Part shown: positions 574 to 28,620 of the stretch, piece after piece
Numbering within the stretch: position 1 is the stretch's first letter
How the letters are laid out: every line of letters starts with the position of its first letter
Notes under the pieces: generated by a model
What the model saw: only the letters and a program-made list of their open reading frames with translations
Databases searched by the model: none
Told to the model about the DNA's origin: nothing
Sequence record: NC_019724.1
DNA: 43,741 nt
DNA from: Escherichia phage HK578
Strand: one strand, 5' to 3'
Program-made: the position numbers and the translations under genes

Positions 574-1958
574 TGCGTAACTATGCGGCGGAACACCGCG
601 CACTGGAACGCGCGATCGCAAAGCGCAACCGACCACCACGTCCGACACGCGTTGCGCAGGCGGTGCGTCTTTACCAGCCTGATTGCCTACCGCACCAGGT
701 CGAACTACTGCGCGACACAAAGACTAAAATACTTGGCCTGTGTTCCGGCTTCGGTGGTGGAAAGTCGTGGGTCGCTGCGCGTAAGGTCATCCAGCTTTTA
801 ACCCTGAACCCGGGTCATGATGGCATCGTTACAGAACCGACTATTCCCCTCCTGGTTAAAATCATGTATCCAGAATTGGAGAAGGCTTTCGACGAGGCTG
901 GCTTCCGGTGGAAGTTCAACAAGCAGGACAAGATCTATAGCGTTCTGGTGAAAGGCAAATGGACCCGCGTGATCTGTGAATCAATGGAGAACTATACCCG
1001 TCTGATCGGGGTCAACGCCGCGTGGATTGTTGCCGACGAGTTCGACACCACGAAGCAAGACGTCGCAATGGCGGCTTATCACAAATTGCTCGGTCGTCTG
1101 CGTGCGGGCGTGGTCCGTCAGTTTGTCATCGTATCCACGCCGGAAGGCTTCCAGGCAATGTATCAAATTTTCGAGGTGGAGAAGGATAGCCAGAAACGTT
1201 TGATCCGGGCGAAGACCACCGACAACCACCATTTACCGGCAGACTTTATCGACACGCTGCGCAGTCAGTACCCGGCTAACCTGATCGACGCGTACCTGAA
1301 CGGCCTATTTGTTAACCTTACGTCGGGCGCGGTGTACAAGATGTTTAATCGCGAGGAGAACGCCAGCACCGAAGAAGTACAACCGGAAGACACGCTGATT
1401 ATCGGTATGGACTTTAACGTCACGAAAATGGCGGCGGTCGTGTATGTAAGACGGCAGCGTACCACCGAGAACAAGGAGTTCCGCGACGAGATTCACGCCG
1501 TGGATGAATTCGTGGACCTGTTTGATACCCCGGCTATGATTGAAGCGATCGAGGAGCGCTACCCCGATCATTGCGCTGCCGGTAGGGTTGTAGTGTACCC
1601 TGATAGCAGCGGCAAATCCCGCAAGACGGTCAACGCGTCGTCGTCCGATATCGCACAACTGGAAGACGCGGGCTTCGAGGTGGAGTATGACAGCGTTAAC
1701 CCACCTGTGAAAGACCGATTGATCGCGATGAATACGATGATGTGCAACTCGAAGGGCGTGCGCCAGTATTTTGTCAACCTGGATAAATGCCCTACACTAG
1801 CGAAATGTCTGGAACAGCAGGTGTATGACCTGAAGAAAGGCGAGCCGGATAAAACTGCCGGTGTGGACCACATGAACGACGCCGCGGGCTATCCTGTTGC
1901 GCACTTATTCCCTGTGATTCGTCCGATCGCCGTTGTTCCAACTGTAGACTTCTACTAA
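573..1958 (+). CDS. terminase large subunit
   Basis: 461 aa; Walker A-like GLCSGFGGGKS, Walker B-like AAWIVADEFD, C-terminal nuclease acidic residues (IIGMDFN, VDHMNDAAG); follows TerS. Confidence 0.88.
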   Translation: MRNYAAEHRALERAIAKRNRPPRPTRVAQAVRLYQPDCLPHQVELLRDTKTKILGLCSGFGGGKSWVAARKVIQLLTLNPGHDGIVTEPTIPLLVKIMYPELEKAFDEAGFRWKFNKQDKIYSVLVKGKWTRVICESMENYTRLIGVNAAWIVADEFDTTKQDVAMAAYHKLLGRLRAGVVRQFVIVSTPEGFQAMYQIFEVEKDSQKRLIRAKTTDNHHLPADFIDTLRSQYPANLIDAYLNGLFVNLTSGAVYKMFNREENASTEEVQPEDTLIIGMDFNVTKMAAVVYVRRQRTTENKEFRDEIHAVDEFVDLFDTPAMIEAIEERYPDHCAAGRVVVYPDSSGKSRKTVNASSSDIAQLEDAGFEVEYDSVNPPVKDRLIAMNTMMCNSKGVRQYFVNLDKCPTLAKCLEQQVYDLKKGEPDKTAGVDHMNDAAGYPVAHLFPVIRPIAVVPTVDFY

Positions 1959-1969
1959 GGAAACCGACC

Positions 1970-3490
1970 ATGACCGTTAACGTTGACAACCAGCACCCGC
2001 TCTATGCGCGCATAGCGCCAGAGTGGAAAATGATCCGTGACTGCGTAGCAGGGGAGCGCGCCGTGAAGGCGTGCGGGCCATTGTACCTGCCACACCCCGC
2101 AAGCGGGGACACCACCGACCCGAAATCACGGGCACGCTATAAGGCATATAAGCAACGTGCTGTCTTCCTGAACGCCACCGCCCGCACACTGAATGCCCTG
2201 TTAGGCGTGGCCTTCGCCAAACCGGTGAGTCTGGACCTTTCCGGGGCAATGGCTGACCTGATTGATGACGTAGACGGCAGCGGGATGCCACTGGCGCAAC
2301 TACTGCGCGGCGCTATGTCGGAAGTGCTGCAATCGGGCCGCGCAGGCTTTATGGTGGACTATGACCGCCAGGCGCATTTTGACGAACTGGGTAACGTAGT
2401 GCCGCAGACCGCCGCTGAAATGGCGGCACACCGCCCGCTTATCCGCCTGTATACGGCTGAACAGATCATCAACTGGCGGCAGACACACGGCGTCGACACG
2501 CTAATCGTGCTGAAGGAGACGGACGAAATCAGCACCGAAGACCCGGACGACTTCGCAAACCACGAAGTTACGATCTGGACCGAGCTTCGCATGATTAACG
2601 GTGCGGCACACGCCCGCCGCTGGTTTTACAACGCGGACACGTCCGAGGTGCAAATGGACTTGCCGCGGGGATTCACCCGCACCGACCTTGTACCTCTGGT
2701 GGACGCTGCCGGTAACGCGCTTACGCAACTGCCTTTCTGTTGGTGTGGCGCGGTGGATAACAACGCGACACCGGACGCCGCACCGCTGGCGGATATTGCG
2801 TCCATCAACATTAAGCACTACAACGCCGAAGCAGACGTCGCCGAGATTGCGCACATCGTGGGGCAACCTACCCTCATTGCGACTGGTCTGACCCAATCAT
2901 GGGCGGACAAGAACCTGAAAGGCGGCATCGCGCTCGGGGCAACTAAGGGCGTTATCCTGGGCCAGAACATGGACGCTAAACTGCTTCAGGCGGAGGAGCG
3001 CAACTTGTCTGTTGCACTGTGTGAGCGCCGAGAATTGCAAATGGCTAAACTGGGGGCGGCCCTGGTCGAGAAGGGGACCGCACCCAAGACGGCAACCGAA
3101 GCGGCCTACGATGCGCAGACAGATAACAGTATCCTGTCACTGATTGCCGGTAACGTTGAGAAGGCTTTCAACCGTGCGCTGCAAATCGTTAAGCTGTTCA
3201 CCGGCGACACCGCCGACCAGCGCGTAACGCTGAACAAGTTCTACACTGAAATCACGGTTGATGCGCAGCTTATGACCGCGATGATGGCAGGTGTGCAGAC
3301 CGGTACTGTCCGACTTGCAGACTTTATCAAGTGGATGATGGCCCAGGGCGTTATTGATGACTCGCAAACCGTCGAGCAGGTGGAAGACGAACTGCGAAAT
3401 CAGAATCCATTGCCTCAAATGTCCCCGGATGCGGTAGAATCGACCGAAGAAGCCCCGGACGAGGTAGCGGACAATGGCGAAGACAATTAA
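1970..3490 (+). CDS. portal protein
   Basis: 506-aa ORF immediately after TerL with SD AAGGAAA; size, position and acidic C-terminus typical of portal. Confidence 0.75.
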   Translation: MTVNVDNQHPLYARIAPEWKMIRDCVAGERAVKACGPLYLPHPASGDTTDPKSRARYKAYKQRAVFLNATARTLNALLGVAFAKPVSLDLSGAMADLIDDVDGSGMPLAQLLRGAMSEVLQSGRAGFMVDYDRQAHFDELGNVVPQTAAEMAAHRPLIRLYTAEQIINWRQTHGVDTLIVLKETDEISTEDPDDFANHEVTIWTELRMINGAAHARRWFYNADTSEVQMDLPRGFTRTDLVPLVDAAGNALTQLPFCWCGAVDNNATPDAAPLADIASINIKHYNAEADVAEIAHIVGQPTLIATGLTQSWADKNLKGGIALGATKGVILGQNMDAKLLQAEERNLSVALCERRELQMAKLGAALVEKGTAPKTATEAAYDAQTDNSILSLIAGNVEKAFNRALQIVKLFTGDTADQRVTLNKFYTEITVDAQLMTAMMAGVQTGTVRLADFIKWMMAQGVIDDSQTVEQVEDELRNQNPLPQMSPDAVESTEEAPDEVADNGEDN

Positions 3491-6441: not shown

Positions 6442-7542
6442 ATGTCTTTAACAGTGTTCCAGCGTAAACTCGTTACCGCGGTTACGCAAATGATCCCCGA
6501 CAACCTGAACGTTTTCAACGCCGCCGCCAATGGCGCTGTTGTTCTCGGTACTGGTGAAGTGCTGAAGGATGTTGTAGAGAAAATGTCCGTAGGCTTGATC
6601 GCCAACCTTGTTACCGACCGTAACGCCTACGCCCCTGTCGGTACTCCGGCAACCGCTAAAGTGCTGGCGCGTATGCTGACCAACTCGGTTAACCTGTCCG
6701 CGAAAGTGGGTCCGGTGGCAATCACTAAGGCTATGATGGCTAAAATCGAAACCAACGTTAACAGCGTTGCGGCTGAGATTGCGGCACAGGCTACTCAAGC
6801 GATTTTGCTGCACTACCTAAAAGCGGGTATCGGTGCAGGTAAAGCGGCGATCGAAAGCAACGCAGCGGCAAAATACACCCAACCGGCGCGCGTTGACGGC
6901 GTTGGCGGTCGTACCTTCCCTACCCTGGCAGACTTCCCGCTGGCTGCTTCTAAGTTCGGCGATCAGGCGTCTTTGATTAAGTCATGGTTTATGGACGGCG
7001 TTACCTGGGCAAACTTCATTGCGTACCAGGCACTCCCTTCCGCTGAACAGGTATTCGCAATTGGCGATCTCCAGGTAATGGGTGATGGTCTGGGCCGTCG
7101 CTTCATTATCTCCGATGCCGCTGCCGATGCTATGGGCGCAGGCAACATGCTGGGCCTGGTCCCTGGCGCGGTTGCAGTTACCACCAACGGCCTCGATATG
7201 CTGGCGCAGGAGAAAGGCGGTAACGAGAACATTGAGCGCTGGTGGCAGGGCGAGTTCGACTTCAACGTGGCTGTTAAGGGATATCGTCTGAAGGCGTCCG
7301 CTCGTACTCCGATCGAAGGCGTTCGCTCGTTCAAACTGGACGACATCACCACTTCCGCTAACTGGGAACTGGACCAGGGCCAGGTAGACAACGCACCGGC
7401 AACCGTGCAGGATGTTGGCGCCGTTGGTGATGGCGATACTAAAGGCCGTCGTAAGACCCAGGCCGCACAGGCAGTGCCTACTCGTCACATCAAGGAAACG
7501 GCGGGCGTACTGGTTACGCTGACTGCGACCACAGCGTCCTAA
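6442..7542 (+). CDS. major capsid protein
   Basis: 366 aa, SD AAAGGA, follows scaffold gene and is followed by a strong terminator; assignment by position and size. Confidence 0.65.
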   Translation: MSLTVFQRKLVTAVTQMIPDNLNVFNAAANGAVVLGTGEVLKDVVEKMSVGLIANLVTDRNAYAPVGTPATAKVLARMLTNSVNLSAKVGPVAITKAMMAKIETNVNSVAAEIAAQATQAILLHYLKAGIGAGKAAIESNAAAKYTQPARVDGVGGRTFPTLADFPLAASKFGDQASLIKSWFMDGVTWANFIAYQALPSAEQVFAIGDLQVMGDGLGRRFIISDAAADAMGAGNMLGLVPGAVAVTTNGLDMLAQEKGGNENIERWWQGEFDFNVAVKGYRLKASARTPIEGVRSFKLDDITTSANWELDQGQVDNAPATVQDVGAVGDGDTKGRRKTQAAQAVPTRHIKETAGVLVTLTATTAS

Positions 7543-7557
7543 CAGGCGCACATCCCA

Positions 7558-7586
7558 AAGGGGCGGGCTTATGCCCGCCTTTTTTA
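7558..7586 (+). terminator. intrinsic terminator after capsid gene
   Basis: GGGCGGGC-ttat-GCCCGCC followed by TTTTTT. Confidence 0.7.
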
Positions 7587-25193: not shown

Positions 25194-25414
25194 TTCAATT
25201 CCTCAATAAGGGTGGCTCGGGCGCTGCGCGCGGTGTAAGAGTTGCACACGAAATGACAACGTCGGGTAATGACAAGCCACCCGGTAAGGTCCATACCAAG
25301 GAGGTGTTCTGGCCGTGACACGCGACGCACACGATCGCGGCGCGGGTCGATGTTATAGTCTTTTTGCATTTGGTCTACGACCGCGTGGTCGCGGTCAACG
25401 ATTAAGATATTCAT
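25190..25414 (-). CDS. hypothetical small protein
   Basis: 74 aa from ATG 25414 (MNILIVDRD...); overlaps the Dam 3' end by ~20 nt; start uncertain. Confidence 0.35.
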   Translation of the reverse strand: MNILIVDRDHAVVDQMQKDYNIDPRRDRVRRVSRPEHLLGMDLTGWLVITRRCHFVCNSYTARSARATLIEELK

Positions 25415-25880
25415 GTAGCTCACTCTCGCTCATTATTTCAATTTGTGCGCTGCCGGTGGGCGGCGCTTCGTCAAATATTATCAATTGCTGGCACTTGTTA
25501 TTGCTCGGCCCGACTTCACCGGTCACAGCATGTATAAATCGGATCCGCCAGTCCAGAAGAATTATCAGGTTTGCAGTCTTCCGGGCCAGCTTCGCCCACT
25601 TCGTCGACGTGTCCTGATTCAGTAGCATGACGGTCCGGCGTCCGTGCGCTGCACACTCGACCCACGGCAGCGGATCGGAATACGGCGGGTTGCACCACTT
25701 CCACCCTTTCAACTCTGACCAGTCCACTTCAAGCGCGCTGTGCTCTGCCGTGAAGTAACGCGGTAGCAGGTGGTTGTCATCGCTCGCCGCCATGTCATAA
25801 CGGAATCGGTACTTCCGGCGCAGCGGTTTAAATAAAGCTGGCGGCGTGCACCAGCTATCTTTTTGCTCATTCTTCGACAT
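25395..25880 (-). CDS. DNA N6-adenine methyltransferase (phage Dam family)
   Basis: ATG 25880 with SD GGAGA; motifs DMAASDDNH and WCNPPYS characteristic of phage Dam-type amino-MTases. Confidence 0.8.
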   Translation of the reverse strand: MSKNEQKDSWCTPPALFKPLRRKYRFRYDMAASDDNHLLPRYFTAEHSALEVDWSELKGWKWCNPPYSDPLPWVECAAHGRRTVMLLNQDTSTKWAKLARKTANLIILLDWRIRFIHAVTGEVGPSNNKCQQLIIFDEAPPTGSAQIEIMSESELHEYLNR

Positions 25881-25899
25881 CTCACTGTCTCCAGGTATT

Positions 25900-25924
25900 A
25901 AAAAGGGCGTCCAACCGGACACCC
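25900..25924 (-). terminator. intrinsic terminator / attenuator inside early operon
   Basis: minus strand GGGTGTCC-ggtt-GGACGCCC followed by TTTTT, located between promoter-like element and Dam RBS. Confidence 0.5.
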
Positions 25925-25926
25925 TC

Positions 25927-25955
25927 AATATAATGCAGCCAATCTAGTTATGCAA
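25927..25955 (-). promoter_or_regulatory. sigma70-like internal promoter
   Basis: minus strand TTGCAT-17 nt-TATATT; overlaps direct repeats TGCAGCCAAT (25934-25943) and TGCAACCAAT (25951-25960). Confidence 0.4.
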
Positions 25956-25960
25956 CCAAT

Positions 25961-26284
25961 TTACGCATAAAAATTTGGGTCGCGCGCTACGTCTACCAGA
26001 TACAGGTTGCTCATGCGGTTGCCGTAGTGCCCAGGCGTGCGCTGGCGACACACAACGGCGAAGCCTGGAGGGATTGTATTGCCTGTCTCAATAATCCACG
26101 CCACGCGTGCGCCAGACAGCGTCTTGCCGTTGTATTCGATGCGCGTGCCCCCATCGGCAGTGTTAAGGTTGCCAATCTTACAGCCTGTGGACTTCAGGCG
26201 AATGACACCGGTCTTGCTGTCGTAGGAAAAAAGCTGATTGGTCATTGCCACTGAAAAGTCGATTGCGTCGAATGCAGTATTCAT
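25961..26284 (-). CDS. HNH_3/AP2-like domain protein (catalytic status unclear)
   Basis: 107 aa; segment order DGGTRIEYNGKT / ARVAWIIETG / GNRMSNLYLV resembles HNH_3-type homing endonuclease domains but the usual His positions are not obviously conserved. Confidence 0.4.
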   Translation of the reverse strand: MNTAFDAIDFSVAMTNQLFSYDSKTGVIRLKSTGCKIGNLNTADGGTRIEYNGKTLSGARVAWIIETGNTIPPGFAVVCRQRTPGHYGNRMSNLYLVDVARDPNFYA

Positions 26285-26976
26285 TTTAAATTTTCCTCGT
26301 TAACCGCTATCGCGAAGCCGCGCGGGGTGAGTGAGCGGATTAATTTTGTACGAGCGGATTTACCACCGAGGCGACTATACTGCTTCGAGTACCCTTTTTC
26401 AACGAAAACAGGTTTCTTCTCGGGCATACGGAAGCCGTTTCCAGTCCATAAGCAGGTCAGCTTCGGATATGAATCGCGGGCGTTGATGTATTCAGGGAAG
26501 AGCGGGTGTACGTCATCCTCTGGCAGATATCCGCCATACTCCCACGGGTCAAACGAGTGGTCCGGCTTACGCCACTGGGTGGAAAGCACGCTGCGCGGAT
26601 TCTCAATCATATATGGCACTTCGAAGAAATCACCCAGGTAAGCTGCGATCTTCGCGGTGCGCACCGCCTTAAGCTGGAAGGCAGGGTCGCGGGCGCGTTT
26701 GCGCGGGAAAGCTGGCGCACCGCTAACCGCCAGATCCGTACACGGAGGGAATGCGTAAATGATATCCGGCGTGCCGAAATCGCCATTCATAGCGCGGGCC
26801 ACGAAGTCCAGGTCTATAAACTCATTACGATAGCGGATCCCGCGCCCATAAATCCGGTAGTCCAGGTACGACCCGTGATCGGCTTCGGAGTAGTTGAAGC
26901 AGTAACACTTATGCCCCATCTCGGCAGCACGCTCAATCATCAAGCCGCTGCCGTCGAATAATGACCAGATAATCAT
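26281..26976 (-). CDS. C5-cytosine methyltransferase-like protein (compact)
   Basis: 231 aa; motif I-like LFDGSG (res ~7), PPC (res ~78, PCT rather than PCQ), ENP (res ~126) with C5-MTase-like spacing; too short for a typical target recognition domain. Confidence 0.5.
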   Translation of the reverse strand: MIIWSLFDGSGLMIERAAEMGHKCYCFNYSEADHGSYLDYRIYGRGIRYRNEFIDLDFVARAMNGDFGTPDIIYAFPPCTDLAVSGAPAFPRKRARDPAFQLKAVRTAKIAAYLGDFFEVPYMIENPRSVLSTQWRKPDHSFDPWEYGGYLPEDDVHPLFPEYINARDSYPKLTCLWTGNGFRMPEKKPVFVEKGYSKQYSRLGGKSARTKLIRSLTPRGFAIAVNEENLK

Positions 26977-28397
26977 TTGCGCGCCTTTTTAGCTTTCATG
27001 TATTCCATTAAATCGTCCTGAATATCGCGCTTACTGTCGCGACGTTCGGCGACCAGTTCATCCAGTGTGCCGCGAGCCTGGATAATGTAGACGAATACTG
27101 GACGAGGGTGCCCGGCTTGCATCTGGCGAACTGGCCCGATACGCTCCACGATCTGCGCAAAGTGCTCGTAGTTCCAGGTGTCTGAGAAGATAGCAAGGTG
27201 GTGTCCGCCATCCTGCAAGTTAAGGCCGTGACCCGCCGATGCCGGGTGCGCAAACATGATGGGGATCTCGCCCCTGTTCCACGCTTCCATATCCTTATTT
27301 CCTTGCTTTCCCTTACCCATCGCTACGCCGTGCGGGAATTTCTTCTTAAGACGTGCCAAGTCATGCTTGTACTGGTACGCGACGAGCAACGGTGCGCCGT
27401 TCAACTCCTCCACGATACTTTCCAGCGCGTCCAGTTTAGCGTCGTGGATTTTCACCCATTCGTCGGTGCGCTCGCCGTCTTCGTCGACTTTATACACGGC
27501 CCCTGAAGCAAGCTGAAGGCACTTAATAGTCTTCGACGCAGCGTTCGCCGCCTCCACAGTTCCGCTTTCCAGTTCGGCAAATAGCTCCGCTTCGAACTGG
27601 TCATAAATCTTGCGGGCTTTCTTCGGCAGGTCCACAACAACCGGCGTATAGATTGGCTTGTCACATCCGAAGTATTCAGCCGCATCAACTGTGAGCGACA
27701 CGTCGGACAGGCGTTGTTGTATTTCTTTCTCGGAGTTCTTAAGCGGGGCGTGCTGCATAGTGAAGCTGCCAGGCTTAACAGGCTTGCTAATAAACCAGCG
27801 ATCCGTGAATGCCTTATAGCTACTGCCGAGGCGTTCGCCACCATCGACAAACCACGTCTGACCCCACAGGTCTTTCAGTCCGTTTGGTGCGGGTGTGCCG
27901 GTTAGGTTAATCCAGCGCTTGACGTGCTTGTGAGCAATCGCCGCCAGCGCACGGGCGCGCTTACTTCCCTGCTTGCTTCGATAGCCTTTCAGCTTAGTCG
28001 ATTCATCGGCAACCACGACCGTAAAGGGCCACTCGTCGCCGCAATACTCAACAAGCCACTCAACTACATCATAGTTAATACAAACCACGTTAGCGTCGCT
28101 CTCAAGCGCAGCGATGCGGTCCTTCTCCGACCCAGTGCCATCTACTACCAGCAAGGCGGGGAAGCGCCATTTTTCCTGCTCTGGGGGCCATGTACCGGAC
28201 GCAACGCGCAGCGGGGCCAGCACCAGTACGCGGTCCTCCTGGTTGGACAGGATGCCGGTCTGGAACATTTTATTCAGTGCCCACATAGTCGCGCCGGTTT
28301 TGCCCGACCCCATTGTCGCCCATATATTGCATCGCTTATGCTTGAGGATGAACGCGGTTATCAATTTCTGATATTCGCGACGTCGGAATCTTGCCAT
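26973..28397 (-). CDS. SNF2-family helicase
   Basis: Walker A MGSGKTG, motif II VVADEST, motif III LTGTPAPNGL; start taken at ATG 28397 (MARFRRREYQ...), longer ORF to 28487 possible. Confidence 0.8.
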   Translation of the reverse strand: MARFRRREYQKLITAFILKHKRCNIWATMGSGKTGATMWALNKMFQTGILSNQEDRVLVLAPLRVASGTWPPEQEKWRFPALLVVDGTGSEKDRIAALESDANVVCINYDVVEWLVEYCGDEWPFTVVVADESTKLKGYRSKQGSKRARALAAIAHKHVKRWINLTGTPAPNGLKDLWGQTWFVDGGERLGSSYKAFTDRWFISKPVKPGSFTMQHAPLKNSEKEIQQRLSDVSLTVDAAEYFGCDKPIYTPVVVDLPKKARKIYDQFEAELFAELESGTVEAANAASKTIKCLQLASGAVYKVDEDGERTDEWVKIHDAKLDALESIVEELNGAPLLVAYQYKHDLARLKKKFPHGVAMGKGKQGNKDMEAWNRGEIPIMFAHPASAGHGLNLQDGGHHLAIFSDTWNYEHFAQIVERIGPVRQMQAGHPRPVFVYIIQARGTLDELVAERRDSKRDIQDDLMEYMKAKKARK

Positions 28398-28401
28398 ATC
28401 T

Positions 28402-28620
28402 TTATTCCGCCTTTTTCCAGACTTCTGTCTCACTGTTCCAGTTCCTTTTTGTCGCGTCGTAGTTGGTGGCGTGTCCGATGTGCACACCAGTAGCCCGGAA
28501 GCTCTTAAATTTTTGCCAGCACACCGTCAACGGCAGCGGGTAATTCATGCCCGCGATAAACCATACGCGATCGCCTGGTTTGCATTCGCCCAGTGTGGTA
28601 AGTCGGTAGTGTTCTTTCAT
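28402..28620 (-). CDS. hypothetical protein
   Basis: 72 aa from third ATG (MKEHYRLTT...) 7 nt after GGGAGA; alternative starts up to 28635. Confidence 0.4.
   Translation of the reverse strand: MKEHYRLTTLGECKPGDRVWFIAGMNYPLPLTVCWQKFKSFRATGVHIGHATNYDATKRNWNSETEVWKKAE

Follow-up and report, generated by a model that had tools for sequence, protein, structure and literature searches.

Escherichia phage HK578 most probably encodes, as a protein of 231 amino acids, an active, minimal, SAM-dependent DNA cytosine-C5 methyltransferase (C5-MTase) of a compact, Dcm-like phage family; we put the probability of this reading at roughly 0.87. It is based on the open reading frame (ORF) itself, on conservation, on the fold of the model, on the colinearity of motifs I to VI with those of known enzymes, and on orthology. 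A preliminary description, made from the letters alone, had considered a minimal cytosine modifier and had implied that the protein was new. The first idea is supported by the fold, by the profile-profile alignment of motifs I to VI, and by a 54%-identical ortholog that forms 5-methylcytosine (5mC). The second has to be given up, since annotations of the family exist and its characterization has begun, one ortholog having been studied experimentally. Throughout, the window is the whole stretch of DNA analyzed (43,741 nucleotides; NC_019724.1), and positions refer to it unless another locus is named.

Gene neighborhood, relatives, and selection

The source phage is a Dhillonvirus, a virulent coliphage of the HK578/SSL-2009a type. 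The 231-amino-acid protein proposed earlier corresponds to a real ORF on the minus strand, running from an ATG at 26974-26976 to a TGA at 26281-26283 (Table 1). Its start overlaps the stop of the helicase gene in the sequence ATGA (26973-26976), and its own stop overlaps the start of the 107-amino-acid ORF, again as ATGA; these overlaps at both ends indicate that the helicase, the MTase, and the 107-amino-acid ORF are translationally coupled. The leftward operon also includes a family A DNA polymerase gene. A Pfam scan of the 107-amino-acid ORF returned no match, and this HNH-like ORF may be what is left of a homing endonuclease or a piece of one that binds DNA.

A 4-kb stretch around the MTase gene matched 159 phage records, the best 25 listed being 92.7 to 94.3% identical. 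Proteins 98 to 99.6% identical to the HK578 MTase are labeled “putative DNA cytosine methyltransferase C5,” “DNA methyltransferase,” or “hypothetical protein,” and the first of these labels is already carried by proteins at 99.6% identity. Between HK578 and Henu5_1, the MTase gene shows 25 synonymous differences and 1 nonsynonymous difference (pN/pS 0.011), which indicates strong purifying selection. Henu5_1 carries an extra 465-bp gene (Gp45, hypothetical; 7096-7560 of the compared Henu5_1 locus) between the HNH-like ORF and the Dam-like gene, with no counterpart at 25928-25961 of the window, and this extra gene explains why the 4-kb query aligned to relatives in two pieces spanning 4.3 to 4.7 kb. 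Antisense or overlapping ORFs of 50 to 150 amino acids occur across 26281-26976 (for example, 26506-26961 on the plus strand); they are unannotated in relatives, and the GC content of 54% explains them best.

Motif architecture and fold

The protein matched the profile phrog_757 (“DNA methyltransferase”), residues 1 to 229 aligning to profile positions 15 to 218 of 247. Homologs were located by tblastn in 1,510 phage records, among them Dhillonvirus, Drexlerviridae (T1-like), Jersey-like and Kagunavirus siphophages, Klebsiella phages, rV5-like myophages, Vibrio phages, and Arthrobacter phages, and an exhaustive profile search retrieved 1,982 cluster representatives at E<=1e-3. The median length among the best 150 of these representatives is 235 amino acids, so that compactness is a trait of the family and not a truncation. 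A length of about 210 to 260 amino acids together with PPCT, ENP, Y-x-K-x-T-x-x-W, and R-S-x-T-P-R-G characterizes the family, and all of these are present in the HK578 MTase.

A small divergent subgroup (P0233, P0242, P0243, P0244, and P0261) has PPS for PPC, has ANP, ESP, LNP, or EGP for ENP, and bears an Arg/Pro/Ala-rich N-terminal extension of about 50 to 90 amino acids; judged by these replacements, its members look like catalytically dead methyltransferase derivatives. The compact domain also occurs fused into larger proteins, such as BFVD A0A6J5SE15 (1397 amino acids) and A0A6J5NPY6 (1126 amino acids). The fusions have a helicase/UvrB-type N-terminal region or carry the MTase domain at the C terminus of proteins of 400 to 560 amino acids, and P0245, P0258, P0266, and P0270 are representatives listed among the larger fused proteins.

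Table 1. Features of the MTase gene and its neighbors. Positions are those of the window; conservation was counted over 115 sequences (114 full-length family representatives plus the HK578 query).
Feature	Residues	Positions	Strand	Conservation	Basis
SNF2-related helicase gene, upstream of the MTase gene		26973-28487	-		PF00176, E=2.1e-11
Compact Dcm-like C5-cytosine DNA methyltransferase CDS (probable), 231 aa		26281-26976	-		ORF translation; PHROG 757, E=2.3e-82; KarlJaspers, 54% identity
Motif I, LFDGSG, predicted AdoMet-binding loop after beta1	6-11	26944-26961	-		hhalign onto DLFAGIGG
Motif IV, FPPCTDLAVSGA	76-87	26716-26751	-	C79 107/115, T80 99/115, G86 114/115	hhalign onto GFPCQxFSxAG
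Motif VI, IENP (ENP, 125-127)	124-127	26596-26607	-	E125 112/115, N126 107/115, P127 113/115	hhalign onto LENV
Family-specific conserved segment between beta6 and beta7, DPWEYGGYLPEDDVHPLFPEYINARDS	143-169	26470-26550	-	conserved G148, G149, L151, D168	Model secondary structure
Strand beta7, YPKLTCLW, in the place of motif VIII	170-177	26446-26469	-	Y170 112/115, K172 107/115, T174 104/115, W177 111/115	Model strand at 174-179
Vestigial variable TRD-like region, about 32 aa, with LGGKSARTKLI block	182-213	26338-26433	-	185-202 variable; 203-213 conserved across most of the family	Family alignments
Motif IX-like RSLTPRG, followed by C-terminal helix	214-220	26317-26337	-	R214 107/115, P218 108/115, G220 108/115	Conservation and weak hhalign
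107-aa ORF, downstream of the MTase gene		25961-26284	-		Labeled “HNH endonuclease” in relatives
Dam-like N6-adenine DNA methyltransferase gene		25395-25928	-		PF05869, E=1.1e-35; same leftward operon as the MTase gene

Searched as a single sequence, the HK578 MTase gave no matches in Pfam, NCBIfam, or the PDB sequences, and a scan against PF00145 (gathering threshold, 22 bits) returned nothing at E<=1. The same Pfam family was matched (E<=1) by 26 of 39 close homologs, and 4 of 8 homologs scanned individually exceeded 22 bits, over profile positions 4 to 92, which cover motifs I to IV only. The profile search suggested in the preliminary description thus failed for the protein itself and succeeded for many of its homologs, and membership of an unrelated family is not the cause of the failure.

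Alignment of family profiles by hhalign to E. coli Dcm alone gave a probability below 1%. Because this comparison was too weak, a canonical comparator profile was built from 9 sequences, E. coli Dcm and eight phage proteins annotated as C5-MTases, and it resolves motifs I to VI. The family profile aligned to it with 80% probability (E=1.4e-5) over 120 colinear columns, pairing SLFDxTG with DLFAGIGG, the motif II and III acids with their counterparts, FPPCTDLAVSGA with GFPCQxFSxAG, and IENP with LENV; the alignment ends after motif VI. Motifs I (FxGxG), IV (catalytic Cys), and VI (Glu) are therefore colinear with those of canonical C5-MTases, which bears out the spacing originally proposed for LFDGSG (6-11), FPPCTD (76-81), and ENP (125-127). 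When PDB sequences were searched by hmmsearch with the first family profile, M.HaeIII was matched over motifs I to IV (E=0.79, nonsignificant), and this match was gone with a broader family profile. The Rossmann-type dehydrogenases and ToxD kinase found with the broader profile had nonsignificant E values and were treated as noise.

The motifs themselves depart from the canonical pattern in several respects. Motif I of HK578 also aligned to LFSGAGG of M.HaeIII. The prevalent form of motif I in the family is L-[FY]-D-x-[TS]-G, where a bulky residue (Tyr, Arg, or His) occupies the place of the central Gly in canonical FxGxG, so that the central Gly of HK578 (Gly9) is particular to an enterobacterial-phage subclade. 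At the acidic position of motif II, 102 of the 115 sequences have Asp, and the enterobacterial-phage subclade has Asn (Asn28 in HK578; 26893-26895, minus strand); the sequences with Asn at this position include the experimentally active KarlJaspers/K42-type ortholog. Judged from these residues, the predicted AdoMet-binding loop of the family is atypical for a C5-MTase. In motif IV (Cys79 codon, 26740-26742), Thr80 stands in the usual place of Gln, as had been remarked from the sequence; Thr is found in 99 of 115 family members, and all 9 canonical sequences have Gln. Elsewhere in the superfamily the residue that follows the catalytic Cys can differ, DNMT3 having PCN. Glu125 of motif VI is the predicted N3-protonating residue.

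Compared separately by hhalign, the C-terminal third placed iRSxTPR weakly on motif IX RxLTPRE (E=0.008, probability 5%), and motifs VIII (QxRxR, PQNRER) and X (GNxV) were not aligned. About 54 residues follow beta7, made up of the 32-residue variable/loop region, RSLTPRG, and one C-terminal helix, and the protein ends 11 residues past RSLTPRG; in M.HhaI, some 155 residues follow the equivalent strand. Between motifs VIII and IX, the canonical set has roughly 60 to 200 alignment columns, against about 32 residues here (182 to 213). The shortfall of about 100 amino acids relative to canonical enzymes comes down to a small domain of which the greater part is gone, and the earlier remark that the protein was short by about this much and had no obvious target recognition domain (TRD) holds. 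The family-specific segment of about 27 residues at 143 to 169 is without an obvious counterpart in canonical C5-MTases and may be a DNA-contact element.

Structure prediction, also suggested as a check, yielded a confident AlphaFold model whose best structural matches were DNMT3B, M.HhaI, and M.HaeIII. Its fold is that of a class I AdoMet-MTase and is closest to the C5-MTase large domain. With M.HhaI, M.HaeIII, and E. coli Dcm (PF00145), the HK578 MTase shares the Rossmann-type large domain, the colinear motifs I to VI, and presumably the Cys/Glu chemistry, the product of the ortholog being 5mC. It differs from them in being 90 to 240 amino acids shorter, in having PCT and not PCQ, in falling below the PF00145 threshold, and in having neither an alignable QxRxR or GNxV nor a separate TRD/small domain. 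The catalytic domains of DNMT3A and DNMT3B are only 13 to 16% identical to the HK578 MTase and are about 55 amino acids longer (272 to 291 amino acids in PDB chains). The DNMT3 enzymes, which are eukaryotic de novo CpG C5-MTases, retain motifs IX and X as well as the arginines of motif VIII, have a TRD of some 50 amino acids, and act as oligomers with DNMT3L.

The structural ranking also bears on the nature of the substrate. The preliminary description had allowed for a non-DNA substrate, and the protein might methylate RNA instead of DNA, forming m5C in tRNA or rRNA in the manner of Dnmt2. We consider this very improbable, because DNA C5-MTases score higher structurally than Dnmt2 and RNA m5C MTases and align over more residues, the gene lies inside a DNA replication/modification operon with a Dam-like enzyme, and the ortholog discussed below methylates msDNA.

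The K42 ortholog and the predicted reaction

The only C5-MTase of phage KarlJaspers (MZ501090), bas06_0055 (711 bp, 236 amino acids; “Dcm-like C5 cytosine methyltransferase”), is 54% identical to the HK578 MTase over its full length (E=6e-87). Phage K42 is a strain of KarlJaspers/Bas06, the two genomes being 95.4% identical, and the sequence compared here is that of Bas06. The two enzymes belong to the same family and share its architecture, with PPCT, ENP, PK-x-T, and RSLTPRG in both, and both phages are small virulent E. coli siphophages that carry a Dam-like MTase. They differ in that KarlJaspers is a Hanrivervirus (Drexlerviridae) whereas HK578 is a Dhillonvirus, and in the gene neighborhood of the enzyme.

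In a study of retron Ec86/Eco1, all K42 escapers had a disrupted 711-bp dcm gene, and K42 Dcm, once expressed, required the retron for its toxicity (bioRxiv 10.1101/2023.08.16.553469). The overexpressed enzyme raised 5mC in Ec86 msDNA in vivo, as measured by LC-MS, and a C82A/E128A/K175A/K176A mutant was inactive (bioRxiv 10.1101/2023.08.16.553469). That K42 Dcm triggers Ec86 defense (bioRxiv 10.1101/2023.08.16.553469) is cited as established in later papers. The mutated residues C82, E128, K175, and K176 align to C79, E125, K172, and L173 of the HK578 MTase, so that the second mutated lysine is Leu173 here, at a position variable across the family. Formation of 5mC and triggering of the retron are established for the K42 ortholog; by orthology, the first most likely extends to the HK578 MTase, and the second may do so.

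This mutant bears on whether the HK578 protein is instead a catalytically dead DNA-binding protein or regulator of methyltransferase descent, a form of the inactive binding protein entertained in the preliminary description. Such a protein would fit the failure in Pfam, the absence of the post-Cys Gln, of the motif VIII arginines, and of motif X, and the existence of a small divergent subgroup that seems to be without the Cys and the ENP Glu. However, Cys79, Glu125, Asn126, Pro127, and Lys172 are near-invariant, pN/pS is 0.011, and the 54%-identical ortholog needs its catalytic residues for function, its active-site mutant being dead; we regard inactivity as the least probable of the explanations weighed here.

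Transfer of another group is likewise a very unlikely explanation. The enzyme might, for example, transfer carboxymethyl from Cx-SAM, as does the phage DNA cytosine C5-carboxymethyltransferase CmoX (PDB 8YF3), or start a hypermodification pathway, and E. coli also provides Cx-SAM (PMC12783734). CmoX binds Cx-SAM through Arg350, which replaces the motif X Asn, and is accompanied by a phage CmoA and by an amide ligase (PMC12783734). In the HK578 MTase, Arg219 would be the candidate counterpart of Arg350. It has 333 amino acids, compared with 231 in HK578, and its partners were not found among the seven neighboring ORFs scanned, which include no cmoA or ligase domain; moreover, the ortholog makes 5mC.

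Our observations support a model in which the HK578 MTase, expressed from the leftward replication operon of the phage and coupled to the SNF2 helicase and the small HNH-like ORF, would keep the catalytic half of a C5-MTase. From the alignments we infer the roles of the residues and the recognition elements. AdoMet would be held by the motif I loop, Asn28 (motif II), and Asp55 (motif III). The target cytosine would be flipped out, Cys79 of PPCT would attack C6, Glu125 of ENP would protonate N3, and Lys172 on beta7 may stand in for the motif VIII arginines. Transfer of the methyl group to C5 would then yield 5mC in phage DNA and in other accessible DNA. The small domain (TRD plus motifs IX and X), which comprises about 150 amino acids in M.HhaI, would be cut to some 50 residues; with so little left, recognition would come from short loops at 182 to 213, and possibly at 143 to 169, and is probably simple.

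Target specificity and biological role

The putative target sequence, CCWGG, was taken in the retron study by analogy with host Dcm, with msDNA site mutants as the only support (bioRxiv 10.1101/2023.08.16.553469). Mutation of CCTGG in the msDNA stem abolished defense (bioRxiv 10.1101/2023.08.16.553469). In the host used, MG1655, control msDNA was low in 5mC and the retron was not self-triggered (bioRxiv 10.1101/2023.08.16.553469). MG1655 carries dcm (1900-3318 of the compared MG1655 locus, minus strand), and the CCWGG assumption sits uneasily with low msDNA 5mC in this dcm+ strain. A resident Dcm that leaves msDNA poor in 5mC and does not activate the retron suggests that the phage enzyme may differ from it in site, substrate form, or dose.

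The window itself shows no avoidance of CCWGG (137 sites observed versus 150 expected, a ratio of 0.91), and the absence of avoidance neither supports nor refutes CCWGG specificity. Among the other sites counted in the window, CTAG is strongly underrepresented (17 observed versus 53.5 expected; ratio, 0.32), GGCC (0.71) and GANTC (0.75) show a mild deficit, and GAGCTC does not occur. Literature searches on the compact family and on Dhillonvirus found no methylome or specificity data.

An active C5-MTase with a specificity or substrate form unlike that of host Dcm, for instance one with a degenerate or shorter site, one acting on the outer C of CCWGG, or one that prefers hairpin or single-stranded DNA, would refine the best explanation without contradicting it, and we give it somewhat less than an even chance. 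Such an enzyme would suit the presence of only about 32 residues between beta7 and the motif IX-like element, and the nearest structural neighbor is DNMT3. The DNMT3 branch of the C5-MTases has the smallest TRD and a 2-bp site. The low 5mC of control msDNA and the silent retron in dcm+ MG1655 point the same way, as does the derivation of CCWGG from the Dcm analogy and the msDNA site mutants. However, loss of defense on mutation of the CCTGG stem site is consistent with CCWGG recognition, and overexpression alone could account for the contrast with host Dcm.

No active C5-MTase more compact than this family seems to be known. A bolder proposal, which we advance tentatively and consider unlikely on balance, is that this family of about 230 amino acids represents the smallest natural C5 DNA methyltransferase architecture with a recognition mode unlike that of host Dcm, favoring a shorter or degenerate site or hairpin or single-stranded DNA, and that two short conserved loops replace the recognition domain and motifs VIII and X. 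If true, this would account for the activation of retron Eco1 by the phage enzyme and for the failure of the resident Dcm of dcm+ K-12 to do the same, and it would provide a minimal scaffold for engineered cytosine modifiers.

The likely benefit of the enzyme, we infer, would be to shield phage DNA from methylation-sensitive restriction. In the BASEL work, restriction resistance among Drexlerviridae followed no pattern that tied it to these methyltransferase genes, and Dhillonvirus and Drexlerviridae were described as less resistant to type I and II restriction-modification systems than Queuovirinae (PMC8594841), so that the anti-restriction benefit is a conjecture. The cost, known from the ortholog, would be methylation of retron Eco1 (Ec86) msDNA and, with it, abortive infection.

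For annotation, the consequence is routine: the gene may be labeled a Dcm-like C5-cytosine DNA methyltransferase. The residual interest lies in target specificity and in the roughly 32 residues that stand in the place of the TRD, with some value for enzyme engineering. Because members of the family are the known trigger of retron Eco1 (Ec86), the presence of the gene predicts that this Dhillonvirus, as with the Drexlerviridae tested, may be sensed by that retron, and a Dhillonvirus of the HK578 type could escape retron Eco1 by losing its MTase gene.
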